Origin: a virus
Lineage: Duplodnaviria; Heunggongvirae; Uroviricota; Caudoviricetes
Reading direction: 5' to 3' (one strand)
Length of the DNA: 43,496 nucleotides
Virus record (IMG/VR): IMGVR_UViG_2740892274_000012
Shown piece by piece: positions 1 to 31,738 of this stretch. How positions within the stretch are numbered: position 1 is the stretch's first letter; every line of letters starts with the position of its first letter. Below the pieces are notes generated by a model. That model saw nothing but the letters and a program-made list of their open reading frames with translations, searched no databases and was not told the origin of the DNA. A program made the translations under genes and the position numbers.

Positions 1-2922
1 TTTGCGAACTTCAAAACCATAACCCGTGTATCGCGTGCCTCCCGGGTTATTTCCGCTCCCCGGATCGTCATACGCTATACCGTTAAAAATAATGGGCGGA
101 ATAATAATCTGGCGGTCAAAGTTATGATCATCGCTGATGGTGACTGTAACCGTACCGTCTGGTGTTTCCGTGTTACCCCACGTACCGACTTTTTTCGGGA
201 AGGCTTTTGATACAGCTTTAACGAAATCCCCTCTGACCTGGGTCGCCTCCAGCATGCCCTTAATCGTACAGTTCTGGTTAATCGTGACATTGTTGAGCGT
301 TCCTGAGTTCGCATTCACACTACCACTGATATCCGCATTTTTAGCGGTCAGCTTTCCGTCTGATGTCAGGGAAAATACCGGAGGACTGCCACCGCTGGTA
401 ATGGCGGGGGCTGTCAGGCGCTTCAGGAACACGTCGTTCATGAATATCTGGTTGCCCTGCGCCACAAACATCGGCGTTTCATTCCCGTTTGCCGGGTCAA
501 TAAACGCGATACGATTGGCGGCAACCAGAAACTGGCTCAGCTTGCCTTCCTCCGTGTCCTCCATGCTGAGGCCAATACCCGCGACATAATGTTTGCCGTC
601 TTTGGTCTGCTCAATTTTGACGCCCCACATCGCATTCCATTTATCGTTAGCGTCCTTCCACTCTTTCGAAAACTCATCCAGTCTGCTGGCGTTATCCTCC
701 GTCAGATCAACTTTTTCCAGCAGCTCTTTACCGAGATGGGATTCGGTTATCTTGCCTTTGAAAAAATCCAGGTAACCTTCCGCATCATCGCTCGCCCGAC
801 CGACGGCCTCCACGAATGCCGATTTGCCAACGGTGTTCACACTGCGGATATAAAAGTAATAATCATGGCCCGGTTTGATATTGATACTGGCGGCTATCCA
901 GTACAGCCCCGCGCCAAGGTAGCGGGCTGTGGTTTCAACCTGCCTGATATCGGTAATCCGCGTTTCCGAGAACCAGAACTCAAACTGTACCGTCGGATCA
1001 TAAACCGCAAGATGCGGCGTGGCAGTTATCTGAAAATAGCCCGGCGTCAGCTCAATCCGCGACGGTGCTACCGGTGCGGCAATCCTGAACGATACCGACG
1101 CCGGATCGCCCTGCTGTCCCCAGGCATTTACCGCCCGGACTGTCAGCGTGTACCGTCCCAGCGCCAGTTGCGTGAAGCGGTATGTGGTTTCCGTCGTCCG
1201 GGCCGTGCTGACCAGCCGCTCACTGCCGTCATCCGCTGCCACGGTCAGGCGAAGCATAAAGCTCACCCCCTTCGGAACACGGCTCACTTTCACCTTCACG
1301 CCGTCGGTGACGGACTGAACCTCCACGCTGACCGGATTGCCACTTCCGTCAACCAGGCTTATCAGCATGGTACCGGAGGATGGCAGCGTGATTTCACGGT
1401 CGAGCGTCAGCGTCCGGGTCTGGCTGTTTACCGCCAGCACGCGCCCGCCGATGCTGATACCCGCATAGTCATCATCACAGATTTCAATGACATCGCCCGG
1501 CACATGGCGAAGCCCTTCTGCGCCCACGCTGAAGTCCACGGTCTGCGTTTCCAGCAGTTCTGTTTTAATCAGCCACAGCCCGGCGCGGTGTGCCTGCCCC
1601 CGGCTGGTACAGCCAAAAGCATCCATCTTCGTGACGTTACGACCGTAACGGGCAATGGCCTGCGTATCCTCCACAAGCTCTGTCGCCGTCTCCCAGCCGT
1701 TATCCGGGTCAATCCAGTTCACCTCAACGGCATTATGGCGGTCTTTCAGGGCGCTGAAGCTGTAGCGGAACGGCGCGCCATCATCCGGCATCACCACATT
1801 ACTGCGGTTATAGGTCCACACCTTATCCGACGGTCGGTCCTGCACGAACGTCAGCGTCTGCCCGTTCCATACCGGCATACAGCGCATCGCCGAGCAGAAA
1901 TCACTGAGCACATCCCACGCCTTGCGCTGTGTGGTCAGGTACGCATTACAGGTGATGCGCGGCTCCGTGCCGCCAAAGCCGTCCGGCACTGACTGGTCGC
2001 AGTACTGGCCGATGACATACAGCGCCCATTTGTCCACATCCGCCGCACCAAGACGTTTCCCCATGCCGTAGCGCGGGTGGGTCAGCATATCCCACAGACA
2101 CCAGGCCATGTTGTTGCTGTATGCTGGTTTTAACGTTCCGTCCCAGATACCGCTGTATTGTCGCGTCTGCGGGTTATAGTTCGACGGCACCTGCAGAATG
2201 CGCCCGCGAAGATGATAATTACGACTCACCTGCTGGCTGCCGAACTGCTCCGAGTCCACCTGTACGCCGACCAGTGCAGTGTTCGGGTAGCACTGTTTCA
2301 CATCGATGATTTCGGTGTATGACGACCAGAGCGTTTTGTTCTGCAGCTGGTCTGTGGTGCTGTCCGGTGTCATCCTGCGCATCCGGATACTGAACGGGCG
2401 CGGAGGCAGGTTATCCACCACCACCGAGACCAGATACTGCGAGGTGGTTTTGCCCTTAATGGTGATGTCTTTTTCCGTCACCCAGCCACCGTTACGCTGT
2501 ATCTGAACCAGCAGGCGGACTTCCGACGGATTCCTGTCTCCCTTTGAGGTGGTTTCCACCAGTGCCTGTACACCGAAGGTAAAGCGCAGACGGTCGATGT
2601 TTGCCGACGTGATGGTCCGGGTGATCGGCGTGTCATATTTCACTTCCGTACCCAGCACCGTCTCGGAGCCGGAGGATTCAAATCCCTCCGGCGGTGACTG
2701 CTCCTGCTCACCTGCCCGGAACACCACCGTGACGCCGGAGATGTTGGTATTCCCCTCACTGTCCAGCACCGGCGTACTGTTCAGCAGCACGCTTTTTAAT
2801 CCATCCACCGGACCTTCAACCGGCCCTTCGCTGATGGCATCGATCACACTCAGCAGCTGCGTGGACTTCAGGTTGTCCTTCGCTTCGCGCGGGGTATGCC
2901 CCTTACTGCTGCCTTTACCCAT
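1..2922 (-). CDS. J: Tail tip / host specificity protein J, lambda-like; C-terminal end cut by window edge
   Basis: Reverse-strand translation from ATG at 2922 gives [19 protein letters not shown]... and continues collinear with lambda J as recalled; frame open to position 1. The 467-aa plus-strand ORF 589..1992 is its antisense shadow. Confidence 0.9.
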
Positions 2923-16902: not shown

Positions 16903-18213
16903 TTAAATCCGAAGTGATGTGACTCTTCCGGTCGGTTTGACAATAGGGAATTGCTTAACGATGAAATAACCTCCGGCATCATTCGGGTGATCATTGCCAG
17001 ATTTTTTATCAGGCTCCCCCTTCTCATCCCAGACCTGTTGCTCCAGAGATTCGGCATATAACGGGCAACGCTTCACATTAACTTTATAGCGACGCTCACC
17101 ATTGGCATTGCAGAACATTGCATTCATTGAGTTAACGCGATCTTTTACTGGCGGGTTCGAGCTGTTCACCACAACGTTAAAACCAGCCTGCTTAAGCTGG
17201 GCTATATCCGTCGTACTTGCGTTACTTGATTTTCTGGAATCCCCGGAAGCATCTGGATAAATATAAATTTCCCTCACTTTCCGGTAATCATTCCCATCAT
17301 ACAGCCAGAAGCGTTCTTTAATGATGCGGATCATATCCGGCGTATCGTAGGCATTGATGATTTCAGTTACCGCACATGGAAGCCCCAAACGCAGCACATG
17401 GACGATTCCCGCCATCTTTCCAACGTTAAAATCCATCCCAATATAAATCGGCTCCCCTGGCTGCTCCACTTCTTCGCAATTATTCAGTTTCCGGTCAAAC
17501 TGATGGTAAACAGTACCACTTGTCAGGTTAGTAAACTGTCCTCGAAGATAGGCTTTAATCAGCTCTGGAGGGTATGATTCAAGAAGCGAAGGAATGTAAT
17601 CTGCTGGCAGGTTCTTTTCATTATCGAAAGTAGATGCCTGCACCAGACCATACAGTGAGGCCAGCTCTGTTTTTTCACGCACGGCTTTAACAAACTGCTC
17701 GTAGACAAATTTGAATCCTTCCGGCGTGGTTGTAACGTCAATACCGTTGCGAAGTCCATCAATCTTATAACGCATACGTGCAATTATCTTGCGCCACGCC
17801 GTTCTGGCTTTTTCCTTCGGCAAAATGTCCAGTTCATCCACCAACGCATTACCAATTTTGAAACCGACGATCGTTTGTGGCTTCTCCATCGATCTGCAGA
17901 TAGTGGTTCCCCGATACTGGCGTCCGTAATAAAAGTGAACCTCTTTATTTCCCTCATTAATTTTTACGTTCAATCCCCAGTCAGCAGCAACTTCTTCCAC
18001 TGTAGGGTAAAAAATATCGCGAATTTGGGGATACGTTGGCGCAAAATATCCCTGATTTATACCTGGATGCTCCCAAATCCCCTTGCATATGCCGCCACAC
18101 CCAACCCATGTTTTGCCCGAGCCAAAACCAGCAATATAGGCTTTAAATTTATGGGGCATTGAAAGAAATCGCGCCTGAGGCACATTAAGCGTCGGAGAGA
18201 TCATCTTCATCAC
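16903..18213 (-). CDS. Terminase large subunit
   Basis: 436-aa ORF with a Walker A-like motif (AGFGSGKT) near the N-terminus, then acidic nuclease-like segments; overlaps the small terminase stop. Confidence 0.85.
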   Translation of the reverse strand: MMKMISPTLNVPQARFLSMPHKFKAYIAGFGSGKTWVGCGGICKGIWEHPGINQGYFAPTYPQIRDIFYPTVEEVAADWGLNVKINEGNKEVHFYYGRQYRGTTICRSMEKPQTIVGFKIGNALVDELDILPKEKARTAWRKIIARMRYKIDGLRNGIDVTTTPEGFKFVYEQFVKAVREKTELASLYGLVQASTFDNEKNLPADYIPSLLESYPPELIKAYLRGQFTNLTSGTVYHQFDRKLNNCEEVEQPGEPIYIGMDFNVGKMAGIVHVLRLGLPCAVTEIINAYDTPDMIRIIKERFWLYDGNDYRKVREIYIYPDASGDSRKSSNASTTDIAQLKQAGFNVVVNSSNPPVKDRVNSMNAMFCNANGERRYKVNVKRCPLYAESLEQQVWDEKGEPDKKSGNDHPNDAGGYFIVKQFPIVKPTGRVTSLRI

Positions 18214-19279
18214 TCCTTACTCTGGCATCAACCACATTAATATTGATCGCCACAGGCTGGGGATGTTCATTATCTTCCACCGTTTCGATCTCTTTGCGCA
18301 GCTTCTGGTTTTCCATTCTGCGCCGTTCAATTTCCAGTTCCCGTAGCCGCTTATCTGCACATAAAGCCCCGCCAGCAGAAAACAAACGCAACAATTCACG
18401 CCGGGCGGCAGCCTTATCCTCCAGCAGGATCTCAACGCCGAATTTTCCGAATTTTGCCCCTGCATATAATTGCCGCGCATCCCCATCAAGCAGAGTGGTA
18501 TCAGCCATATAAAGCTGTCCCGTTCCCTCACCGCAGCACTTCGGGCAGTCCGGATTGGGTATGGCGTTATCAACAAAGCCGAGGCCTCCATATTCCGGTT
18601 CGGGTTTGCCATCTCTGGAAGCCTGCGCCGCTGCCTTGTCGAATTCTGCTATATCGCGCCACTGGTAGAGATGATTCTCGCCCCAGCAATAACGGCAGTT
18701 AACACGGCGAAATTGTGCAAGCTGATTGGGGTCGGCCAGGACAATAGCCATCAACTGACTCACTAGTAAATCCAGGTCTGCGGTATAGCGTTTCTGGTAC
18801 TGATTGCGGAAGTAGCTGATAGCGCGAAAAACCCTGGCATTTCTAAGCATACGACTGGCGTTGCTGTTAGCTGTCGCACCTTGCCCCTCATAACCGGCTA
18901 GTCGGTACGCCTCTGTCGGCTTTTTACCCTGAGCAACAAGCATCGCAAACTTAGCCTGCTGGTCAGAAATGCCGAATTCATCGGGACAGAACGAAAATTC
19001 CTCCGCGTCGCCCTCATTCAGGCCCGCATCGAATACTGGCTTTTTTTCCTGAGATTTTTCGTTCCGCTTTTGTGCAGTCTGCGCAGATTTTTTCTGCGCA
19101 CTTTTTTGCGCAGTTTTGCACATTTCTGTCTGCGCATTTTTCGGAGTTTTTTTGATGTAACGACGGGCTGTTGCGTAATTCAGTCCCCTTGCTTCACACC
19201 ATGCCACCGGAGATATACCGGAGCGGGTGTATTCAGCAATATACTCCTGCTGCAACGCCCCCCAGTCCGGTCTGCTCAT
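18185..19279 (-). CDS. Terminase small subunit-like protein with N-terminal HTH and a Cys-rich cluster
   Basis: Contains ...AYRLAGYEGQGATANSNASRMLRNARV..., which I recognise as the small-terminase (P27-type) signature; HTH-like N-terminus; C-x2-C ... C-x2-C-C cluster. Confidence 0.6.
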   Translation of the reverse strand: MSRPDWGALQQEYIAEYTRSGISPVAWCEARGLNYATARRYIKKTPKNAQTEMCKTAQKSAQKKSAQTAQKRNEKSQEKKPVFDAGLNEGDAEEFSFCPDEFGISDQQAKFAMLVAQGKKPTEAYRLAGYEGQGATANSNASRMLRNARVFRAISYFRNQYQKRYTADLDLLVSQLMAIVLADPNQLAQFRRVNCRYCWGENHLYQWRDIAEFDKAAAQASRDGKPEPEYGGLGFVDNAIPNPDCPKCCGEGTGQLYMADTTLLDGDARQLYAGAKFGKFGVEILLEDKAAARRELLRLFSAGGALCADKRLRELEIERRRMENQKLRKEIETVEDNEHPQPVAININVVDARVRSDEDDLSDA

Positions 19280-19282
19280 CAG

Positions 19283-19534
19283 TTAGTCCTGATTTTTATC
19301 CACCCTGAGTAGTTCGCGCAGAGCAAAGGCATCCCCTTTTCTGGCAAGCTTAAACAATGCCGCTCGTAACTCGGCTTCACCTTTCGCTCTGCCCTTACGG
19401 ATGGCCGCATAAAAATCTGTCATTGCTTCCCGATTTTCTTTCAGTCGGTTCAGATCAACATCCAGAACGTCAGCGATTTGTTGTGCAGTCATCCGGCACG
19501 CTGCCAGAGACTCGACTTTCGAATACGGAATCAT
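19283..19534 (-). CDS. Small hypothetical protein (83 aa), possibly DNA-binding
   Basis: Basic helical ORF immediately upstream of the small terminase gene. Confidence 0.4.
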   Translation of the reverse strand: MIPYSKVESLAACRMTAQQIADVLDVDLNRLKENREAMTDFYAAIRKGRAKGEAELRAALFKLARKGDAFALRELLRVDKNQD

Positions 19535-20402
19535 TTGTCACCCCCATTGATATGCAGGGTGTCTTCTTCCTGTATTTTTCGTGAAGGATTTTTACTGCAG
19601 CGTTGTTCCAGGTGACCTGATGGTGAATGCGTTTATGACTGGCACCCATAAGTGAGATTTTTACGCACGACGGCGCATACATGACGGAGTAAAAACTTTT
19701 AACGTAGGTTCCGGAATCCAGATACAGCTCGGTCATTCCGCCGCTGTTTTTCTGCGTCTGTTTCTGCCCTAACTGGACAGCACCGATCGTCATAAACAAT
19801 TCACCACAGCGACCGAGATTCGTGTACGTATTCACATCCTCGTTAATGCGCCCCATGAATGAGAACGGTCGATCAACCGAACAGATAAAGCTGTTCATTG
19901 CCTTGCGTTTCACCCACGAAGCATGGCCGCCATTGTCACCAAGAAAATCCCCGCCCTGCGACATAGCGATGGAAAGAGCAGGTATTGATTCGTAGTACGC
20001 AAGCATTTCAGAAAGGATCTCATCCAGTTTCCTTATCGGGAAATAGGCCTGGTCATAGTTGCGATCCACCCGAAACTGGAACTCGTGATAATCATCATCG
20101 AGCTGAATGAAGTATTTACACCCGACCAGTTTTGCCTGGTCGAAACAGGCATTACGGGCGTAAAAAATTGAGCGGCGGTCACTAAAATTATCGGCTTCGT
20201 CAAAACGACTAGCAATATCGGCTTTGGAAAATACCAGCACCTGTTCACCAAATTCAGCCATGTACTGATGCCGTGTCTTATCTTCATCATCAACAACGAT
20301 AAAAATTTTCCCGGTATAGCCAGCACGACGCAACGTCCGGTAAGTCAGAACTTTGTCCGGTCGCCCGTGAGTCAGAATAAAGGCGCAAAAATCATCACGC
20401 AT
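19470..20402 (-). CDS. Glycosyltransferase-like protein (GT-A fold motifs), function unknown
   Basis: 310 codons from ATG at 20402 (GGAGGAGGA upstream); ...FILTHGRPDKVL...KIFIVVDDEDK... and ...ARNACFDQAKLVGCKYFIQLDDDY... resemble GT family 2 core motifs; start overlaps the ParB-like stop. Confidence 0.55.
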   Translation of the reverse strand: MRDDFCAFILTHGRPDKVLTYRTLRRAGYTGKIFIVVDDEDKTRHQYMAEFGEQVLVFSKADIASRFDEADNFSDRRSIFYARNACFDQAKLVGCKYFIQLDDDYHEFQFRVDRNYDQAYFPIRKLDEILSEMLAYYESIPALSIAMSQGGDFLGDNGGHASWVKRKAMNSFICSVDRPFSFMGRINEDVNTYTNLGRCGELFMTIGAVQLGQKQTQKNSGGMTELYLDSGTYVKSFYSVMYAPSCVKISLMGASHKRIHHQVTWNNAAVKILHEKYRKKTPCISMGVTNDSVFESRVSGSVPDDCTTNR

Positions 20403-21183
20403 ATTCCTCCTCCCCGCCATGCATGATCTCCACCATGCGCTGCGTCATTCGGACAAATCCATTTTCAATAGCCTGCTGATAATCAATGATCACCAGCGCC
20501 GACTCCTCGAAAAGGCACTGAATTTCAGCGGGGGCATGAGCGTAATAGTCCGCAATTCTGCTGAAATTAAACACCGTGTGACGTTCTGCTGCACACAGGA
20601 GGAATTTCTCAATATCAGGATCAAGGGACGCCGAACGTATCCGGCTGATCAGCTCCTGAGTTTTCGTATCGTCGTACAGTTCACTGATATCCGGTTTACC
20701 GCCTGACGGCTCATAAACAGGCGTATCAATTTTCGTCGTATACGGCTCCTCCTCATTTCCTGTACCGGGCAAAACATCCGTCAACAGTTCATCAATTTCT
20801 GCCGGGATGAAGCCTGTCAGGGAGACATCAAAATCAGCATTGATTAGGTCCGACAGCTCCATCCGCAACAGATCTTCATCCCAGCCAGCATTCATCGGCA
20901 GGCGATTATCTGCCAGGCGGTACGCCTTTTTCTGCTCATCCGTCAGGCCAGACAGAACAATGACCGGAACAGAATCCATTTTGAGCATTTCAGCCGCCAT
21001 AACACGACCGTGACCCGCAATAATTTCGCCCTTTTCGTCAATCAGCACCGGATTAGTCCAGCCGAATTGCTTAATACTTTCTACCAGTTGTGCCACCTGC
21101 TCAGTACTGTGCGTCCTGGCGTTGTGCGCATACGGTGACAATTCTTGTAATGGGCGATAGACTATCTTTAATTTCTCGCTCAT
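20395..21183 (-). CDS. ParB-like nuclease domain protein
   Basis: 262-aa ORF whose N-terminus (...LSPYAHNARTHSTEQVAQLVESIKQFGWTNPVLID...GHGRVMAA...) resembles the ParB/Srx fold. Confidence 0.7.
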   Translation of the reverse strand: MSEKLKIVYRPLQELSPYAHNARTHSTEQVAQLVESIKQFGWTNPVLIDEKGEIIAGHGRVMAAEMLKMDSVPVIVLSGLTDEQKKAYRLADNRLPMNAGWDEDLLRMELSDLINADFDVSLTGFIPAEIDELLTDVLPGTGNEEEPYTTKIDTPVYEPSGGKPDISELYDDTKTQELISRIRSASLDPDIEKFLLCAAERHTVFNFSRIADYYAHAPAEIQCLFEESALVIIDYQQAIENGFVRMTQRMVEIMHGGEEEYA

Positions 21184-21320
21184 ACAGCCTTGCTTTATGA
21201 ATAAAACGCACCCCAGCAGCCAGTGCTACTGGGGGCGGAGGTGTTGCTGGTAAAGTTAGGTATTGGATCAATGAGTGAGTCAACATAATATTAAACTCAC
21301 AATTATAAATCAGCCATATA

Positions 21321-22778
21321 TTAGGAGCGCCAAAAAAAACCTGAAAACAATATAATAACAGGATAAATTTCAAGGCGACCAAGAATCATAGCTATGCACA
21401 TTAAATATTTTGCAATGTCATTAAGCACTCCGAATGACGATGCAGTAGCCCCAAAACCTAATCCCATATTATTAATACATGCAGCCACTGTTGCAAATGA
21501 TGTAAGAAAATCATATCCCATACCATTTAACACCAGTATAAAAAACACCGTGAAGAGAGTATAAAGAAAAAAGAAACTCCATACAGACCTCATTACACGA
21601 TCTGTAACTATCTTCCCTCCTACATTTACACTCAACAACGCTCTGGGATGAGAAAGCTGATTTATCTCGTGTTTGCTTTGTTTGAAAAGTATAAGAAATC
21701 GAAGTGACTTAATTCCACCACAGGTTGAACCTATACATCCCCCAAAGAAACTTGACAACAGCAAAAACACTATCGTGTGCGTGGGCCAGTTTGCATAATC
21801 CTGCGTAGCTAAACCATTATCAGTGAGCATGGAGCTGGCAAGAAAAAACGAATGAATAAAACTTCCATGCAAGTCATACATACCTATATGCCAGACCTGG
21901 AAAGAGGTAACAATGATCACCCCTAAGGCTATTAACAGAAAGAAACGAAGTTCAATATCTCTGATTAAAGGTTTTATCGTTTTTCTGCTAATAACAATAT
22001 ACCAAAGAGTGAAGTTGAAAGCCGATAGCAGGGAAAAAGAACCAGCCACCAGCTCAACCAAATAGTTATTAAAATATCCGATACTCTCGCTATGAGTTGA
22101 GAAACCACCAAGCGAAACTGTGGAAATCCCGTGACAAATAGCATCAAACAAAGGCATTCCTGCAAGTCTATAACAGACAATACAAGCAATACCTAATAAA
22201 GAATAAGTTATCCACAGTGTCCGTGACGTATCGGCCAGGCGGGGAGTGAGTTTGTCATCCTTAAATGGCCCCGGCATTTCTGACTGATAAAGCTTTGCAC
22301 CACCAATACCCAATAATGGCAATACTGCAACCGCCAGAACAATAACTCCTAAACCACCTATAAAATTTAACTGTGACCGATAGTACAAATATGCCCGAGG
22401 TAATGAACTAACATCATCAATTACAGTTGCTCCTGTTGTTGTTATTCCAGAAACCCCTTCAAACAGAGCATCAATGAACGTTAAATTAAGTTCTGAGTCA
22501 ATCCATAAAGGGAATGCACTAATAACAGAAAACAAAATCCAAAACATTACAATTATAATAAACCCATCACGGGTACGTAATTGAATGCCAGATTTCTTAG
22601 TTGTATACCACGCTCCGCCACCAATGCAAAAAAATATAACGAAAGTTATAAAGAAAACGAACAGGCTTTTTTCTTTATAAAACAATGCTACAACCATTGG
22701 TGGCAACATTGAAAGACTATAGAGCCAAACCAGGAACCCACACATATGAGTAACAACTCTTACATGAGATGTATTCAT
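21321..22778 (-). CDS. trkG: Trk-system potassium uptake protein TrkG
   Basis: 485 codons from ATG at 22778 (MNTSHVRVVTHMCGF...); polytopic membrane protein with repeated pore-loop-like glycine motifs; visibly AT-rich; a TATAAT-containing upstream region. Confidence 0.85.
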   Translation of the reverse strand: MNTSHVRVVTHMCGFLVWLYSLSMLPPMVVALFYKEKSLFVFFITFVIFFCIGGGAWYTTKKSGIQLRTRDGFIIIVMFWILFSVISAFPLWIDSELNLTFIDALFEGVSGITTTGATVIDDVSSLPRAYLYYRSQLNFIGGLGVIVLAVAVLPLLGIGGAKLYQSEMPGPFKDDKLTPRLADTSRTLWITYSLLGIACIVCYRLAGMPLFDAICHGISTVSLGGFSTHSESIGYFNNYLVELVAGSFSLLSAFNFTLWYIVISRKTIKPLIRDIELRFFLLIALGVIIVTSFQVWHIGMYDLHGSFIHSFFLASSMLTDNGLATQDYANWPTHTIVFLLLSSFFGGCIGSTCGGIKSLRFLILFKQSKHEINQLSHPRALLSVNVGGKIVTDRVMRSVWSFFFLYTLFTVFFILVLNGMGYDFLTSFATVAACINNMGLGFGATASSFGVLNDIAKYLMCIAMILGRLEIYPVIILFSGFFWRS

Positions 22779-22915
22779 ATCTAAATATTCTTTCAATTAT
22801 AACCACCTTGCTGCAATATTATGATTATACTGTATAAAATTTAACTCCTCTTAGATCTTACTTCACTGTTCCTTATGAAACAATCATCAAAATGAATCAT
22901 ATTGTAGTTAAGATT

Positions 22916-23380
22916 TTACTTTAAACACTGCTCGGTTATGTATTGCTGAGCACCTTCAAGTTGGGCCTGCATCATTACCAGTCGTTCCCGGAGGGTGAAA
23001 TAATCCCGTTCAGCGGTGTCTGCCAGTCGGGGGGAGGCTGCATTATCCACGCCGGAGGCGGTGGTGGCTTCACGCACTGACTGACAGACTGCTTTGATGT
23101 GCAACCGACGACGACCAGCGGCAACATCATCACGCAGAGCATCATTTTCAGCTTTCGCATCAGCTAACTCCTTCGTGTATTTTGCATCGAGCGCAGCAAC
23201 ATCACGCTGACGCATCTGCATGTCAGTAATTGCCGCGTTCGCCAGCTTCAGTTCTCTGGCATTTTTGTCGCGCTGGGCTTTGTAGGTAATGGCGTTATCA
23301 CGGTAATGATTAACAGCCCATGACAGGCAGACGATGATGCAGATAACCAGAGCGGAGATAATCGCGGTTACTCTGTTCAT
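22916..23380 (-). CDS. i-spanin Rz
   Basis: N-terminal transmembrane segment then coiled-coil periplasmic domain; ATG overlaps the endolysin stop (ATGA). Confidence 0.8.
22975..23160 (-). CDS. o-spanin Rz1, embedded in Rz in another frame
   Basis: 61-aa ORF with lipobox ...LVVVGC... and a proline-rich mature part (...[15 protein letters not shown]...), fully inside Rz. Confidence 0.7.
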
Positions 23381-23874
23381 TGCTGACCCCACAAACAGAT
23401 TTCACGCTCAATCTCACGACGAGTCATGAGACCTTTCCATTGCTTACCGCCAGCATATGTCCAGCGACGTAGCTGATCACATGCGCCTTTGATATCGCCC
23501 TGGTTTATTTTGCGAAGAAGCGTCGATGTTCTGAAATTGCCAGCGCCCACGTTGTAAACGAACGAGTAAAGAGCGCCGCGCGTTGTTTCCGGTATATCGA
23601 CTTTGATGTACGGGTTAATTTGTCTGGCGACAGTGGCAAGGTCTTTATTCAAGAGTGTTTTGCATTCTGCTTTGGTATACGTTTTACCGAGCATGATGTC
23701 TTTTCCTGTATGCCCGTGACATACAGTCCATACACCAACAATATCTTTGTATGGTATGTAGCTGACACCTTCCAGACCATCGTTACCACTTGGGCCAGTG
23801 ATTAACACTGATGCTATAGCAATTGCTCCGCCACCAATAGCAGCAGCAACGACTTTTCGTAATGATGGAGGCAT
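23377..23874 (-). CDS. SAR endolysin (phage 21 R-type lysozyme)
   Basis: Weakly hydrophobic Gly/Ala-rich N-terminal signal-anchor-release segment followed by a lysozyme domain; start overlaps the holin stop. Confidence 0.85.
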
Positions 23875-24089
23875 TATTCACCTCTCGCAGCCTTGCGCTT
23901 ATCTTCTTTAATCTTGAAATAAAGGTTTGTCAGGTACGTCAGCAGGCCAAATACCAGACTACCCAGCACACCGATTGCAGCCCACTGTGACGGAGTTACT
24001 CTATCGAGCAACTGTAAAAACCAGTAGCCAGCACTGCCTGCGGAGGTGCCGTAGGCAATGCCTGTTGAAATTTTGTCCATGGATTTCAT
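23874..24089 (-). CDS. Pinholin (S21-like) with dual-start MKSM motif
   Basis: 71 codons from ATG at 24089 with GGAGGTGAGG upstream; [29 protein letters not shown]...; two transmembrane segments. Confidence 0.85.
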
Positions 24090-24191
24090 AGCCTCACCTC
24101 CGCACGGAACGGATGGCATAGTTATTATGTGTAGGCTTTCAGACACATCAATCAGAGCCTTAATTGATATATATGCTGGAGACGATGCAAT

Positions 24192-24340: not shown

Positions 24341-24736
24341 CTAACCTCGCATGTCAAAGCCAGATTTCTGAAAATCTCTGTAGACTTCCGGATTGTTGAA
24401 GGCCGGAAATTTGGCTTTATGAGCTGCGGACTTTATCGCTTCGCAATAGGCTTTATCACCGTTACTGGTAGATATTTTTAACGCCGTGCCATCCTGAGAG
24501 AATTCCATATGCAACCTGCATTTTTTCCCTTTCCAGTTATGCGGCTCATCAAGTTTGGCATTAATTGCAGCTCTGATTCCCCGCGCTTGCGCCCCCCATT
24601 CATCCTGATCATCCCAGCGTCCTGAACTGCAACTACCTGTAGCAGTAGTTTTGTGGCAATCTGAAGGGTGTAAAGGTGTGCATCCCGCAACAAAACCGAC
24701 CCAAAAAGTCAACATAACGATTTTCTTTAATCCCAC
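24341..24736 (-). CDS. Lipoprotein, divergent TolA C-terminal domain-like
   Basis: Signal peptide with lipobox (…FVAGC); C-terminus ...KGKKCRLHMEFSQDGTALKISTSNGDKAYCEAIKSAAHKAKFPAFNNPEVYRDFQKS... parallels the upstream paralogue. Start appears to be GTG with GAGGAG upstream. Confidence 0.6.
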   Translation of the reverse strand: MGLKKIVMLTFWVGFVAGCTPLHPSDCHKTTATGSCSSGRWDDQDEWGAQARGIRAAINAKLDEPHNWKGKKCRLHMEFSQDGTALKISTSNGDKAYCEAIKSAAHKAKFPAFNNPEVYRDFQKSGFDMRG

Positions 24737-24886: not shown

Positions 24887-25315
24887 TCAGGGTTTAAAAT
24901 CCAGCACCCCATTTTGAAATACTTTATATACTTCCGGCGAAGGGGGGGCAGGTATATCAGCATTCTTTATCGCATTCATCGCTTCACGACATAAATCGAG
25001 GTCTCCACTTTCTCTTTTAACCTCCAGTAGAAGGCCATTCGGGGCCATATGCATTCTCAGTGTACACTCTTTTCCTGAATACTTACTCGCATCCCCGAAC
25101 TGTTTTTCGATGGCGCTCTTGATTTGATGGGCATACAGACGGATATCCTCACTAACATCAGAAGTACGTTCAGATGAACTCACATACTGTGTCTCTATTG
25201 CTTTATCGGAGTAATATGATGTACGGTCATGATAATTTGTCGATACAGCATCAGTGCACCCGATAATAATCCCACTAATAATCAACGTAAGAATTGATGC
25301 GCTACGAAAACCCAT
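24887..25315 (-). CDS. Lipoprotein with TolA C-terminal domain (TolAIII)-like module
   Basis: Lipobox (…IIIGC); C-terminal ~85 aa (...YAHQIKSAIEKQFGDASKYSGKECTLRMHMAPNGLLLEVKRESGDLDLCREAMNAIKNADIPAPPSPEVYKVFQNGVLDFKP) closely parallels the E. coli TolA C-terminus as I recall it. Confidence 0.7.
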   Translation of the reverse strand: MGFRSASILTLIISGIIIGCTDAVSTNYHDRTSYYSDKAIETQYVSSSERTSDVSEDIRLYAHQIKSAIEKQFGDASKYSGKECTLRMHMAPNGLLLEVKRESGDLDLCREAMNAIKNADIPAPPSPEVYKVFQNGVLDFKP

Positions 25316-29560: not shown

Positions 29561-30562
29561 TTAGTAATCTGCGTGTTTCGCACTTTTCAGAAATGCTTTC
29601 ATATTTTCATTAGGTCGCTCAATTTCGAAGTTACTTCCATATAACTCTTGTAATTTTGGCCATAACTTACTTAATAACCCTCTCCTGCGATAAAATGGAT
29701 GTATCCAAACGGTAGATAGGTACGGAGAATTTGCATTTGAATTGTTTATTGTGACCAGCCCAACTAAACATTGTCGATAACCACTATTATCCATTGATTG
29801 TATTTCTTCGACGAATGGATACGCGATTACATCAGTCCAACCATGATCGGTTGTATCCCATTGCATTCCGTCATGACATTCCTTCGACTGATAGCGGCGT
29901 AAAGCTACACACGCGAGCTTTTGCCAATCTGGAGAATTAATTGTGATCTCTTCATCGTATGACGCGCCTATTGGAGCGGGTATTGGTCTGATTAATCCAG
30001 CATGGCATTCATCATAGAACTTCATGTTTCCCTCAGAAACGTTGTGTACGTTGGGTTGCTCCATGTGTGCGCCATTCAAAAATAGCTCTGATAGTAGTGT
30101 ATCTACACTGTAATCTTTATTGATTATTGTCGGCTTAGAGTTTTTCTTATTAAGGCCGCGAGTAACGATTTTTTGATCAATGTTAACAACATGGAATAAT
30201 CCGTCGGGGAGGCTAGCGAACCACGATGGGGCATCGGACCAGAATAGCATGCCTTTTGTACTTCTTAAGAGTTTAATTAAGTTAATACAAGCTTCTTCAC
30301 TAGTCTTGCCGTTGATGCGAAGTATGTTAGGACTAAAGTAATATTCATCCATATCAGGGAATGCAGCTTCGCAAAACTCCTGTACATAATTTAGCACCTG
30401 GATTCTACAGAGATCATCATAGCTGGTAATAACTAAGGGGGTATCTTCATTACTATTATGATTATCAATAATGCAATCTATAGCGAGACTTACTGCTTTG
30501 CGTATCACTTCAGTTGAATCTAACGACTCTAAAAATTTTGTCTTTCGTGTGCGAATATCCAT
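29561..30562 (-). CDS. Hypothetical protein (333 aa) with a C-terminal GNAT-like segment; downstream gene of the two-gene accessory operon
   Basis: ATG 15 nt after the upstream stop; C-terminal ...CLVGLVTINNSNANSPYLSTVWIHPFYRRRGLLSKLWPKLQELYG... resembles acetyltransferase motif A; AT-rich. Confidence 0.6.
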   Translation of the reverse strand: MDIRTRKTKFLESLDSTEVIRKAVSLAIDCIIDNHNSNEDTPLVITSYDDLCRIQVLNYVQEFCEAAFPDMDEYYFSPNILRINGKTSEEACINLIKLLRSTKGMLFWSDAPSWFASLPDGLFHVVNIDQKIVTRGLNKKNSKPTIINKDYSVDTLLSELFLNGAHMEQPNVHNVSEGNMKFYDECHAGLIRPIPAPIGASYDEEITINSPDWQKLACVALRRYQSKECHDGMQWDTTDHGWTDVIAYPFVEEIQSMDNSGYRQCLVGLVTINNSNANSPYLSTVWIHPFYRRRGLLSKLWPKLQELYGSNFEIERPNENMKAFLKSAKHADY

Positions 30563-30577
30563 GTATGACCTGCGCTA

Positions 30578-31600
30578 TTAAAATTCATGAATGAACGGTT
30601 TGTCATCTGGTTGCAAAATGGTGGTTTTATTCGTTGCTACATTTAAACTGTTGTAGAGCATAATTGCCAGGTTCGATGCATTTTCAATCAGCGTTTCAAG
30701 ATCCTGGTCTGTAATCACTACGAGGTTCCCTTCTTTATCCTTTCCACCACGATGCACTAAGTGATTTCGATTGAGGGTTGCCAATTCAATAGCTTCTATC
30801 GGACAGTCTTTTTGTACTTTTATATCGAATGTAGCTTCATAGCGGTCGATTACCTTTTTAGTGCTATGCCAGCTTGCACTGATCAAGTGTTCCTTGATTG
30901 ACCTGATTAGCTCTCCCCTAATTTTCTCGATGGGTTCACCCTTGAAAGGCAACGCAGCAATATCTTTGCTTACTTTAAATTCAGTCTTACCTTTTTCTAT
31001 ACAATTGGCTATGTAGACATCATCTTTCTCTATAGAATTAATGAATAGCTCAACATAAAGCGTTTCCAAAGCTGTAATAACATTCGTGTAGAGCAAACTA
31101 AGCAAGTGGTTTTTTTGCTGTTGTTCAGTTTTATCTTTTGCAAGTTTTTTTATTTTATCGATATTATCAATGAATTTTAAATACGGATTACCGGAAGACG
31201 TTACAGCGTCGTAGATATCATCATCGTACCAATCATCTATATTATTTGAGTTTCCAGACCAGTCAAAACATTGTGTTTGTAATTCATCTACTAATTCCTC
31301 AATATACTCAGATTTAACATATTGACCGAAGATGGATTGTAGTTCTTCGCTCGCATCATACGGCCCGCCATATATGTAAGCATAGCCACCTTCTCTACTT
31401 TCATACGGACAAGCATTTGCCGGATCTTCAAAGTTTTCAAAGAACCAGTTTTTCATTACTTCGAGTTGATCTTTTTTGCTTATGTATTTTAAAGATTTTA
31501 GTGGAACTTTCTTTCCATTAACCTCGAAAACAATTTTCACGATGTAACGCTCCCTTGTATCAATTGCGCAACTATTATACCACAGCGAAATACAGGGCAT
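30578..31600 (-). CDS. Hypothetical protein (340 aa) with an R-x4-H (RNHLVH) HEPN-like motif; upstream gene of the two-gene accessory operon
   Basis: ATG at 31600 preceded by AAGGAGG (6-nt spacer); acidic, D/E/K-rich; AT-rich. The ORF track extends 23 codons upstream without an SD. Confidence 0.6.
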   Translation of the reverse strand: MPCISLWYNSCAIDTRERYIVKIVFEVNGKKVPLKSLKYISKKDQLEVMKNWFFENFEDPANACPYESREGGYAYIYGGPYDASEELQSIFGQYVKSEYIEELVDELQTQCFDWSGNSNNIDDWYDDDIYDAVTSSGNPYLKFIDNIDKIKKLAKDKTEQQQKNHLLSLLYTNVITALETLYVELFINSIEKDDVYIANCIEKGKTEFKVSKDIAALPFKGEPIEKIRGELIRSIKEHLISASWHSTKKVIDRYEATFDIKVQKDCPIEAIELATLNRNHLVHRGGKDKEGNLVVITDQDLETLIENASNLAIMLYNSLNVATNKTTILQPDDKPFIHEF

Positions 31601-31738
31601 AACCTGCCTCCTTAAACTAACATACCATGAGCCAGCAATGTCCGCTATTGGCACAAAGCGGACAACCACGCTAGCTCTCCCCTGTGCCAGAAAAATGTCA
31701 ATTTACATATGAACTAATGCTCTTTGATCTAGTAACGT

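Follow-up and report, generated by a model that had tools for sequence, protein, structure and literature searches.

A ParB-like protein and a TAGT-family glycosyltransferase form a strictly linked two-gene cassette, possibly for DNA modification, in a Rac-like Escherichia coli prophage and other viruses of bacteria and archaea

The window analysed here (the whole stretch of DNA, 43,496 nucleotides) contains two overlapping late genes whose source is a Rac-like E. coli prophage, a type of element carried by 16% or more of complete E. coli genomes. The upstream gene (20395-21183, minus strand) encodes a 262-aa protein that matches PF02195 and phrog_620 (E 1.7e-90) and is named ynaK by PGAP. The downstream gene (19470-20402, minus strand, ATG at 20402) encodes a 310-aa GT-A glycosyltransferase (GT) of the TAGT family. 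The limits given for the open reading frames in a first-pass annotation were exact, and so was its description of their junction (20395-20413, minus strand): the ynaK stop TGA (20395-20397) and the GT start ATG (20400-20402) overlap by 8 nt in ATGCGTGA, and the Shine-Dalgarno sequence GGAGGAGGA (20405-20413) lies within the end of the ynaK coding sequence. An alternative upstream ATG is listed at 20420; nevertheless, 20402 is taken as the real start because all homologues begin at MRDDF. In about 60 of 76 related loci the stop of the partner gene falls 4-23 nt within the GT reading frame, these lengths being approximate since GT starts were picked heuristically, and the recurrence of the overlap indicates that the coupling does not arise by chance.

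The pair had been placed immediately upstream of the terminase, which is nearly the case: terS (18185-19279, Terminase_2) and terL (16903-18213, Terminase_6N and Terminase_6C) follow on the minus strand, but a reading frame for an 83-aa helix-turn-helix (HTH) protein (19283-19534, minus strand) intervenes between the GT gene and terS and overlaps the 3' end of the former. This HTH protein resembles part of a small terminase subunit (phrog_309, E 8e-23). Its gene is restricted to Enterobacterales loci, apart from weak matches in two others, and is a lineage-specific element outside the conserved pair. On the other side, trkG, across which the GC content falls to 0.34-0.39, is followed by a hairpin resembling an intrinsic terminator (21211-21234, minus strand; a 10-bp stem with 7 GC pairs, then a T-run). 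Judging from its sequence, this hairpin probably isolates the ynaK/GT pair from lysogenic transcription of the trkG moron. As no convincing promoter was found between trkG and ynaK either, the pair was assigned to the late operon. A search for repeats around the two genes revealed no parS-like or other convincing ones, merely weak two-copy matches; the same search returned a TCTGCGCA cluster inside terS.

The 310-aa protein was submitted to profile and structure searches, as had been suggested, and belongs to the Pfam family TAGT (TET-associated glycosyltransferase, PF20691), with 118.9 bits against a cut-off of 27.5 (E 3.7e-34) and its residues 8-222 aligned to positions 4-205 of the 205 in the profile. 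An AF2 model built on a 42-sequence alignment confidently predicts a GT-A fold; it supersedes one based on 18 sequences, too shallow for the C-terminal third (pLDDT 63). The peptides that had drawn attention to the protein (FILTHGRP, IFIVVDDEDK and ARNACFDQAKLVGCKYFIQLDDDY) are all present in its translation. Its active-site motif R...DDD...ED, the one described for experimentally active phage GT-A DNA glycosyltransferases and for JGT, is intact. The catalytic residues are invariant across lineages, which argues for a real transferase under selection. The core comprises residues 1-280, and the last ~30 residues form a non-conserved, low-confidence tail that overlaps the next reading frame. No membrane segment is evident, in line with the earlier reading, as Kyte-Doolittle hydropathy exceeds 1.08 in no 19-residue window. 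The protein has no sequence relative among solved structures and matches no NCBIfam or PADLOC family; its structural neighbours include TarP, TarS, glycogenin and peptide S-glycosyltransferases. The pair maintains 40-59% identity across Gram-negative, Gram-positive and archaeal hosts. The clade to which the GT belongs has additional invariant residues (QGGD, RKAMN, GTYxKSF, RxHH and W265). In three large viral contigs a second TAGT copy is found next to a core-type one, and these second copies lack the additional residues. Some TAGTs carry N-terminal extensions, namely a P-loop kinase-like domain (recognised by sequence motif), a methyltransferase or a second TAGT.

YnaK consists of an N-terminal domain of the ParB/Srx type with a linker (residues 1-140; 20764-21183, minus strand), delimited by phrog_498 and PADLOC MTase_II matches and by an alignment with Spo0J, and of an acidic C-terminal domain (CTD; residues 141-262; 20398-20763, minus strand), delimited by an alignment of homologues. 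The N-terminal domain (ParB-N) passes the PF02195 cut-off (29.3 bits against 26.3) and aligns with Spo0J (1vz0, E 2e-6), GHGR standing opposite GERR and LADN opposite LVEN; box II thus reads GHGR instead of GERR, and the positions of boxes II and III can be aligned. The match to canonical partition ParB (TIGR00180) involves the N-terminal domain only and remains below the cut-off (38.1 bits against 58.45), and no ParA is annotated in the region; the term "ParB-like nuclease" is a historical name. Matches are also obtained with phrog_498, annotated as DNA methyltransferase (residues 3-141, E 6e-51), and with PADLOC MTase_II (E 1.5e-38), which puts YnaK ParB-N in the subtype that occurs in fusions with N6/N4 DNA methyltransferases of phages. 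ParB-N is found in all full-length partners at profile level (hhalign 99.6%). The possibility that partners lacking a phmmer match to ParB-N carried a different N-terminal domain was rejected, as profile searches showed all 16 to be divergent ParB-N.

The CTD has no Pfam family and no match in the PDB beyond chance (E >= 0.005). Among its 818 homologues are many stand-alone proteins (127-150 aa), and the alignment yields the consensus YTxKIxxPxYEPxGxKP...AAxRHxVFNY..IAEYYAH..SALVIIDF..AIxNGYV. Both domains of the partners are strongly acidic (median net charges -13 and -10), and YnaK itself has a net charge of -24. Wherever a core TAGT occurs, the CTD goes with it. None of the N-terminal extensions of TAGTs is a CTD, and no Rosetta-stone fusion of partner and GT was found except P0081, likely a frameshift artefact. 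Literature searches returned no experimental work on ynaK, the Rac GT or the ORF1/ORF2 pair of Lactobacillus phages.

The proposed check of co-occurrence with ParB-like genes was carried out in two search directions. A YnaK-like gene precedes the TAGT gene in all 76 assessable GTDB loci, which come from many bacterial lineages and one archaeal metagenome-assembled contig, and likewise in the archaeal virus HHTV-2. Conversely, a TAGT gene lies downstream in 80 of the 80 viral contigs retrieved via the YnaK CTD. The linkage between the ParB-fold protein and the TAGT is therefore strict in both directions, with the genes on the same strand and mostly overlapping, and the pair is present in isolated phages of Lactobacillus, Nocardia, Porphyromonas and Haloarcula. 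In Vibrio phage pv27, a 140-aa unannotated reading frame lies directly before the TAGT gene. The two genes usually stand at the head of the packaging operon, and the terminases that follow are unrelated: in most cases the first large reading frame downstream codes for a terminase large subunit, at least four families being represented (Terminase_6N 23, Terminase_3 15, T7-type 10 and GpA 6, of 53). In Lactobacillus phage c5 the two genes are the first after cos, and in Nocardia phage NTR1, where no terS is annotated, they directly abut terL. Another arrangement occurs in the three contigs of 60-130 kb that were examined. There, 2-4 TAGT paralogues and a cytidylyltransferase-like gene have a stand-alone CTD as their neighbour, in replication clusters with PolA, clamp, SSB and RecA and with no terminase within ±7 kb. 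Genes for a P-loop kinase, a SAM methyltransferase, a sulfotransferase, a His_Phos+CTP_transf protein, an NTP_transferase and an epimerase are fused or adjacent to the module, and constitute accessory sugar-tailoring or donor genes.

The genes that would supply the usual acceptor were sought at three scales. Neither the annotation nor Pfam scans of the window revealed a recognisable TET/JBP protein, thymidylate-synthase-like hydroxymethylase or DNA methyltransferase, nor a dCMP hydroxymethylase or a primary alpha- or beta-GT. The whole annotation of phage c5 (31.8 kb), which leaves no unassigned reading frame above ~210 aa, contains no recognisable TET, hydroxymethylase or DNA methyltransferase. 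Among the best 25 of 53 families in the 6-kb upstream flanks of the 76 loci, no TET/JBP, hydroxymethylase or DNA methyltransferase recurs. Thus, the hydroxyl acceptors known for the TAGT family are missing here, and we know of no case of enzymatic glycosylation of canonical DNA. Solitary TAGT homologues have been reported in 288 of 753 GT-encoding phage genomes, their function being left open (2026, PMC13216743).

Several scenarios could account for these observations. The one that we prefer, tentatively and with slightly less than even confidence, is a two-component, late-expressed glycosyltransferase module that acts on phage DNA before packaging. The TAGT would be the catalyst, a GT-A enzyme dependent on a metal and an NDP-sugar, and the YnaK-type protein its obligate non-catalytic partner, the two probably forming a physical complex. 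The acidic CTD would be the enzyme-specific part of YnaK, probably for docking or activation, and the ParB/Srx-type NTP-binding domain would be optional, probably serving to link the enzyme to double-stranded DNA, in parallel with the ParB-like proteins that activate phage thymine dioxygenases on dsDNA. The overlap of stop and start codons would favour co-synthesis of both proteins. The pair would be transcribed only late, with the operon in which it follows the lysis genes and precedes terS/terL, a position that makes replicated phage DNA just before packaging the most likely substrate; the purpose may be protection from host nucleases or defence systems. The first-pass annotation had proposed a DNA-modification module or a packaging accessory. 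That proposal is supported in part. Iyer et al. are said to have defined the TAGT family in 2013 and to have been the first to tie ParB to DNA-modification clusters. The papers citing that work give just a general suggestion linking ParB to DNA modification. As a published precedent, one phage enzyme that modifies DNA needs a ParB-like protein when acting on dsDNA (PMC13229309), and ParB has been suggested to direct modification machinery during packaging (PMC8256090). The ParB-N subtype common to YnaK and phage DNA methyltransferases speaks for a DNA module; the strongly acidic domains of the partner, unlike what is seen in a DNA-binding targeting subunit, speak against it. A narrower proposal, in which YnaK-CTD/TAGT puts sugar on DNA without hydroxymethyl-pyrimidine, the site being a canonical base, the backbone or an end of the DNA, seems rather doubtful.

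The main rival to a DNA acceptor is a protein acceptor. In this scenario, which we regard as unlikely, the GT would modify either its own partner, for example in a glycogenin-like manner on one of the invariant Tyr/Thr residues of YTxKIxxPxYEP, or a packaging or virion protein. It would be congruent with the missing hydroxymethyl-pyrimidine pathway, with the proximity of the module to structural and packaging genes, and with a partner whose occurrence and evolution strictly track those of the enzyme, whose character is acidic and not that of a DNA-binding protein, and which bears an invariant, extended motif rich in Tyr and Pro. Glycogenin and peptide S-glycosyltransferases are among the structural neighbours of the GT, and the TAGT-family enzyme GREB1 O-GlcNAcylates protein (PMC7968844), which also counts against a DNA module. 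Nevertheless, the ParB-N subtype is that fused to DNA methyltransferases, the characterised phage TAGT-type enzymes that are known act on DNA, and in the three large contigs the CTD and TAGTs lie among replication and not structural genes. Moreover, one CTD per 2-4 TAGT paralogues fits the building of a glycan on a common substrate and does not point specifically to the CTD as acceptor.

Alternatively, the pair could be an accessory of packaging, with a ParB-like protein that aids the terminase in recognising or processing concatemeric DNA, as HNH proteins assist beside some terminases, and the GT would be structural or regulatory, with no genome-wide base modification. The position directly upstream of terS/terL, kept across unrelated terminase families, and the arrangements after cos in phage c5 and against terL in NTR1 are consistent with such a role. 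Yet it is improbable given the invariance of the GT catalytic residues, the sugar-donor and tailoring genes that accompany the module, the stand-alone CTD/TAGT clusters in replication modules with no terminase within ±7 kb in the three contigs, and the lack of a parS-like or other convincing repeat around the genes.

A role in lysogenic conversion or defence, in which the GT would modify a host envelope polymer or hyper-glycosylate the hmC-containing DNA of incoming phages, appears distinctly improbable. TarP is a prophage GT that modifies a host envelope polymer, it is, with TarS, a structural neighbour of the GT, and the gene adjoins the trkG moron. Both ideas have been raised for prophage GT-A enzymes by Pyle et al. 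Nevertheless, the putative terminator and the lack of a convincing promoter between trkG and ynaK place the pair in the late operon, and the pair also occurs in phage c5, which has no integrase in its annotation, and in large contigs with their own replication genes. The identity of 40-59% is maintained across hosts that have no envelope acceptor in common, neither a flippase nor a membrane component is present, and the GT has neither a membrane segment nor a PADLOC match.

Finally, it is scarcely credible that the GT is what phrog_842, to which it belongs, and its RefSeq relatives call it, a beta-glucosyl-HMC-alpha-glucosyltransferase adding a second glucose to glucosyl-hmC as in T2/T6: the T6 enzyme is indeed in the same Pfam family, but the prophage lacks both hmC synthesis and a first glucosyltransferase, tblastn yielded no T2/T6 match at E<=1e-3, identity is 22% to the TAGT of Aeromonas phage 65 and just 15% to the annotated Klebsiella phage PKO111 enzyme (a structural match, TM about 0.6), and solitary TAGTs have been described with no assigned function (PMC13216743). 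The name is already contradicted by the genomic context and is almost certainly wrong for this GT, and a widely propagated misannotation is thereby corrected.

Phages use DNA glycosylation as a central weapon in countering restriction, CRISPR and newer glycosylase-based defences; to our knowledge, it is so far understood solely where hydroxymethyl-pyrimidine is made first. The class of solitary TAGTs now has a defined and testable unit, a two-gene cassette made up of a catalytic TAGT and an obligate partner domain of ~120 aa, usually fused to a ParB-type NTP-binding module, whose linkage is exceptionless in both directions in the loci examined, from viruses of bacteria and archaea. Were DNA the acceptor, the cassette would represent a new route to modified DNA and the second enzyme class with a ParB-like activator, after the T-dioxygenases. 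Should the sugar be placed on DNA without hydroxymethyl-pyrimidine, the resulting DNA modification would be chemically of a new class and would depend on a new accessory domain, and its carriers, temperate and virulent viruses of archaea as well as bacteria, would number in the thousands. With a protein as acceptor, the cassette would reveal a widespread and unrecognised viral protein-glycosylation system. Whichever the acceptor, the copy in an E. coli prophage makes the experiment simple.

Several known systems come close to the cassette. The TAGT DNA glycosyltransferases (the T2/T6 beta-glucosyl-HMC-alpha-glucosyltransferase, the metavirome 5mYOX-associated GT-A enzymes and trypanosome JGT) are akin to this GT in PF20691 membership, GT-A fold, R...DDD...ED motif and viral origin. 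Nevertheless, they act on 5hmC, 5hmU or glucosyl-hmC supplied by a co-encoded hydroxymethylase or TET/JBP, whereas the present GT comes with an obligate CTD partner and no recognisable hmC/hmU pathway. On the partner side, the canonical ParB proteins Spo0J and Noc have an N-terminal CTPase-fold domain homologous to that of YnaK, which, unlike them, lacks an HTH DNA-binding domain and any recognisable dimerisation domain. In the DpdA/DpdB system of 7-deazaguanine DNA modification, DpdA depends on the ParB-like NTPase DpdB for its action on dsDNA, but it is a transglycosylase, the partner architecture differs and the context is that of bacterial defence islands. Animal GREB1 shares the Pfam domain of the GT, and PGAP calls the E. 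coli protein "GREB1-related"; GREB1 is, however, a large eukaryotic protein without a ParB partner, for which O-GlcNAcylation of ER-alpha has been reported (PMC7968844). In 5mYOX176/ParB176 (PNAS 2026, PMC13229309), a phage DNA-modifying enzyme is paired genetically with a ParB-like protein, as here. The partner, needed on dsDNA, has an NTP-binding N-terminal domain and a C-terminal domain but no obvious DNA-binding domain; the enzyme is an Fe/2OG dioxygenase, whereas here it is a glycosyltransferase whose dependence on the partner is predicted. Lastly, the N-terminal module of phage ParB-N::N6/N4 DNA methyltransferase fusions matches the first ~140 residues of YnaK, which has the CTD in place of the methyltransferase and leaves catalysis to be provided in trans by the translationally coupled GT.

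A Rac-like lambdoid prophage of E. coli, essentially complete, makes up the window. Along its minus strand, the lysis cassette (holin, lysozyme and Rz; 22916-24146) is followed by trkG (21321-22796), the ynaK-like gene (20395-21183), the glycosyltransferase (GT) gene (19470-20402), an 83-aa HTH ORF (19283-19534), terS (18185-19279), terL (16903-18213) and the portal and head genes. The first-pass annotation had put the GT immediately upstream of the terminase; it does lie near terS and terL, but the small HTH ORF intervenes. This is the one inaccuracy among sequence-level statements that otherwise proved correct. The 2.1-kb region that carries the pair is 100% identical in several complete genomes and was matched in 1619 of 5426 complete E. 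coli genomes, 879 of which cover at least 80% of it. Ten deposited phage records (nine Escherichia and one Salmonella) also contain it, at about 98.7% identity. The PGAP names across the region are ynaK (ParB/Srx family), "GREB1-related protein" and trkG. In a genome that is identical here (L001 21644-21901), the 262-codon ynaK ORF is intact, yet PGAP annotates only its first 86 codons (window 20926-21183), as a pseudogene "missing C-terminus", and leaves 20395-20925, which encodes the C-terminal domain, without annotation. The truncated K-12 ynaK reference is the probable cause.

Other parts of the prophage deserve mention. Two paralogous small proteins (24341-24736 and 24887-25315, minus strand) lie directly upstream of the holin; a TolA C-terminal domain is recognized by Pfam in the second and named only by PGAP in the first, their N-termini look lipoprotein-like by eye, and they may be superinfection-exclusion or Tol-mimic morons. 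The nin-like region (29561-31669, minus strand) holds two adjacent unknown genes encoding proteins of 333 aa (weak GNAT match, E 9e-4) and 363 aa (weak match to a HEPN/RES N-terminal domain, E 2e-4); one of them is frameshifted in the related strain EC2, and they may form a toxin or defence pair. The 5' part of terS (19055-19145) contains four to five direct repeats of the TCTGCGCA type, spaced by 12-36 nt, where the protein is AQK-rich; the cluster could be a pac-type recognition array or merely a low-complexity coding region. Beyond the tail-assembly genes, ORFs of 150 and 467 aa without Pfam match (137-1992, plus strand) occupy the place where EC2 has gpJ and tail-fibre genes, so this end of the prophage differs between the two strains.

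The ynaK-like and GT genes overlap as had been read from the sequence: the TGA (20395-20397) and the ATG (20400-20402) are both contained in ATGCGTGA, and the ribosome site of the GT, GGAGGAGGA, lies at 20405-20413, inside the ParB coding end. The start at 20402 is preferred to the upstream ATG at 20420 because the homologues begin at MRDDF. Upstream of the pair, trkG separates the lysis cassette from the late packaging genes and is an AT-rich insertion (21211-22796 including its hairpin; GC 0.34-0.39 versus about 0.48). Its strong terminator-like hairpin (21211-21234, minus strand) comes just before ynaK, and no convincing promoter was found upstream of that gene. We infer that antiterminated late transcription, shared with the terminase genes, is the only source of transcripts for the pair.

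The GT belongs to the Pfam TAGT family (PF20691, E 3.7e-34) and matches phrog_842 (E 7.5e-104). Its TAGT relatives make up a large family of 1323 clusters at 50% identity, and 491 clusters match with E<=1e-30. With a shallow alignment, AF2 modelled only residues 1-215 well; a second model, from 42 diverse sequences, reached a pLDDT of 87.6 and a pTM of 0.84, with pLDDT below 50 only in the last ~20 residues (290-310), and sequence conservation stops near residue 280. The R...DDD...ED motif, known from phage GT-A DNA glycosyltransferases with experimentally shown activity and from the base-J glucosyltransferase, is invariant in the clade (R14, D102-D104, E188-D189), as are the clade-specific Q149-G-G-D152, R166-K-A-M-N170, G231-T-Y-x-K235, R258-x-H260-H261 and W265. 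No hydrophobic stretch was found, in agreement with the earlier statement that the protein has no membrane segment.

Residues 1-140 of the partner, YnaK, correspond to a ParB/Srx N-terminal domain and a helical linker (ParB-N). The Pfam match is marginal yet significant and the similarity to Spo0J (1vz0) has an E of 2e-6; box II is GHGR versus GERR in ParB, and LADN aligns to LVEN in box III. The best matches of ParB-N are the N-terminal modules of phage N6/N4 DNA methyltransferases (phrog_498, E 6e-51; PADLOC MTase_II, E 1.5e-38). None of these best matches is a partition protein, and YnaK falls short of the full-length ParB model TIGR00180, with 38 bits versus a cut-off of 58. The C-terminal domain (CTD, residues 141-262) has no match in Pfam, PDB or NCBIfam; its consensus is YTxKIxxPxYEPxGxKP ... 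FLxxAAxRHxVFNYxKIAEYYAH ... ExQxLMExSALVIIDFxxAIxNGYV, followed by an acidic tail.

The GT and ParB-like genes, seen coupled in the window by the first-pass annotation, recur together in GTDB, which was scanned with a degenerate pattern at one genome per species. The scan returned 80 loci from many lineages, among them Proteobacteria, Bacteroidota, Firmicutes, Verrucomicrobiota, Planctomycetota, Acidobacteriota, Chlorobi, Cloacimonadota, CPR lineages and one archaeal MAG contig. A same-strand ORF matching YnaK precedes the TAGT gene in 76 loci, and the remaining four are cut by the contig end directly before the GT. The match is strongest and most constant in the CTD. The 16 full-length partners in which phmmer saw no ParB-N have a divergent one by profile comparison (hmmsearch E 3e-19 to 3e-9; hhalign probability 99.6%), and in seven loci (L009, L023, L028, L030, L059, L064 and L078) the partner is only about 132-153 aa long, with little beyond the CTD; no separate ParB-N ORF was found elsewhere in these seven. 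The partner stop lies 4-23 nt within the GT ORF in about 60 loci, the GT start being chosen heuristically. The reverse search leads to the same association. A CTD profile retrieved 818 proteins, the best matches being mostly stand-alone (127-150 aa), and CTD patterns, run against viral contigs, hit 80 loci; about 40 are near-identical copies of the E. coli type. A core-type TAGT gene lies downstream on the same strand in every one of the 80, at most 150 nt away in 74 and beyond one inserted gene in the other six. The inserted gene is the same in the two loci read (L156 2942-3895 and L174 4350-5318); the L156 copy is, by Pfam, a histidine-phosphatase::cytidylyltransferase-like fusion placed exactly between the ParB-CTD and TAGT genes, and gaps of similar size (~950 nt) occur in L163, L165, L167 and L171. 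Judging from its domains, this gene suggests phage-encoded synthesis of a nucleotide-activated donor. Among the loci examined, TAGT and the YnaK-type CTD thus appear as an obligate pair in both directions.

Isolated viruses also carry these genes. In Lactobacillus phage c5 the pair is ORF1 and ORF2, the first genes after cos; it is also present in Lactobacillus phage phi jlb1, archaeal virus HHTV-2 and Nocardia phage NTR1, where the partner Orf1 is assigned by position only. The TAGT gene is close to one record end in the Lactobacillus phages LL-Ku, phiLdb, Ld17 and PMBT4. Porphyromonas phage005 keeps the order ParB-TAGT-terS-terL with a GT that is just 27% identical, and among 191-kb Vibrio phages with TAGT, pv27 has an unannotated 140-aa ORF directly before it, a candidate partner by position. 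The packaging operon nearly always begins with the cassette. The first large ORF downstream of the GT, surveyed in 53 loci, is mostly the terminase large subunit, of at least four unrelated families (Terminase_6N 23, Terminase_3 15, T7-type 10 and GpA 6, with overlapping counts), which indicates that the cassette is mobile. In NTR1 (L090 3-3408), Orf1 and Orf2 (TAGT) abut terL directly and the annotation shows no small terminase subunit, which raises the question of whether the partner replaces, or cooperates with, TerS in some phages.

The known TAGT acceptors are 5hmC, glucosyl-5hmC and 5hmU. No recognisable TET/JBP, thymidylate-synthase-like hydroxymethylase or DNA methyltransferase was found in the window by PGAP annotation and Pfam searches of the unnamed ORFs, and none is annotated in phage c5 (31.8 kb, 50 ORFs), which has no unassigned ORF above about 210 aa. 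Among 108 ORFs of 200-420 aa from the upstream flanks within the GTDB loci, the commonest DNA-related families, among those listed, are C5-methylase (3), PAPS-reductase-like (3) and N6/N4 methylase (2); no hydroxymethylase or dioxygenase occurs in the 25 of 53 families listed, and any in the other 28 would be a single case.

Other neighbours bear on the sugar. Some TAGT proteins are fusions in which the additional part is a SAM methyltransferase, a sulfotransferase, another TAGT or, at the N-terminus, a Walker-A P-loop segment that resembles a kinase by motif and has no Pfam match. Both fusion loci read (P-loop and sulfotransferase) retain the ParB partner upstream, and terminase follows in the former. 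Single loci have a radical-SAM gene, a GT-B fragment, NTP-transferases or an epimerase/dehydratase near TAGT; the radical-SAM gene (L085 80-1042) is directly upstream of the partner of the P-loop fusion, and the GT-B (Glycos_transf_1) fragment (L087 2222-2614) is upstream of that of the sulfotransferase fusion. These predicted functions point to an elaborated sugar and its donor. The second genomic setting of the module is replication: three viral contigs (L091, L093 and L094; 60-130 kb) have a stand-alone CTD next to 2-4 TAGT paralogues and a cytidylyltransferase-like gene, and this group lies between the genes for DNA polymerase A, SSB, sliding clamp, Cas4-like exonuclease and RecA. The TAGT copies are either core-type, with all clade-specific residues, or divergent (27-30% identity) and devoid of them. 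L094 also has a PAPS-reductase-like gene.

Several scenarios could account for these observations, which fit a two-component enzyme. TAGT would be the catalytic component. The CTD would be its specific partner, as the strict pairing both ways and the absence of ParB-N from some loci suggest. Since phage DNA methyltransferases carry the same ParB-N subtype as a fusion, ParB-N::CTD with TAGT in trans may be the counterpart of the cis arrangement ParB-N::methyltransferase. To act on dsDNA, one subclass of phage thymine dioxygenases was recently shown to require a ParB-like protein that combines an NTP-binding domain at its N-terminus with a CTD and lacks a DNA-binding domain (PMC13229309), and ParB had been proposed to guide modification machinery during packaging (PMC8256090). 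The replication-cluster context of the stand-alone CTD points in the same direction. A simple targeting to DNA is tempered by the acidity of both partner domains (median net charge: CTD -13, ParB-N -10) versus the mildly basic GT (+5); the partner looks more like an enzyme activator or regulator than a DNA-binding subunit. We tentatively favor late-expressed, partner-dependent glycosylation of phage DNA before packaging, which has close to an even chance of being correct.

Alternatively, the acceptor could be a protein, either the invariant Tyr/Thr-Pro segment of the partner or packaging and virion proteins. This would account for the missing base pathway and the acidic partner, with GREB1 as a precedent, but the ParB-N subtype and the replication context are harder to reconcile with a protein acceptor, which seems unlikely. 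A pure packaging accessory would agree with the genomic position and is at odds with the invariant catalytic site and the sugar-donor genes, which makes it improbable. Envelope conversion or defence against incoming phages is slightly less probable still, given that the pair is placed in the late operon, occurs in phage c5, for which no integrase is annotated, and in large contigs that encode replication genes of their own, is conserved across domains and comes without membrane parts. The function named in the databases can practically be dismissed: the name "beta-glucosyl-HMC-alpha-glucosyltransferase" is almost certainly wrong for this clade because no hydroxymethyl acceptor pathway was recognised, and both the genomic context and the distance from T-even enzymes contradict it.

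There is some chance, albeit a limited one, that the pair hides a new class of DNA modification. Solitary TAGTs were explicitly left unexplained (PMC13216743), a survey of the ParB fold does not mention glycosyltransferases, and in the literature searched ParB and DNA glycosyltransferases are only listed as neighbours; such neighbourhoods may already appear in Iyer et al. 2013. The components themselves, namely TAGT, the ParB fold and ParB-assisted DNA modification, are of known kinds. To our knowledge, it is new that the pair exists without a recognisable hydroxymethyl-pyrimidine source, that the conserved partner is a distinct, unnamed CTD, and that the pairing is obligate both ways in viruses of bacteria and archaea.
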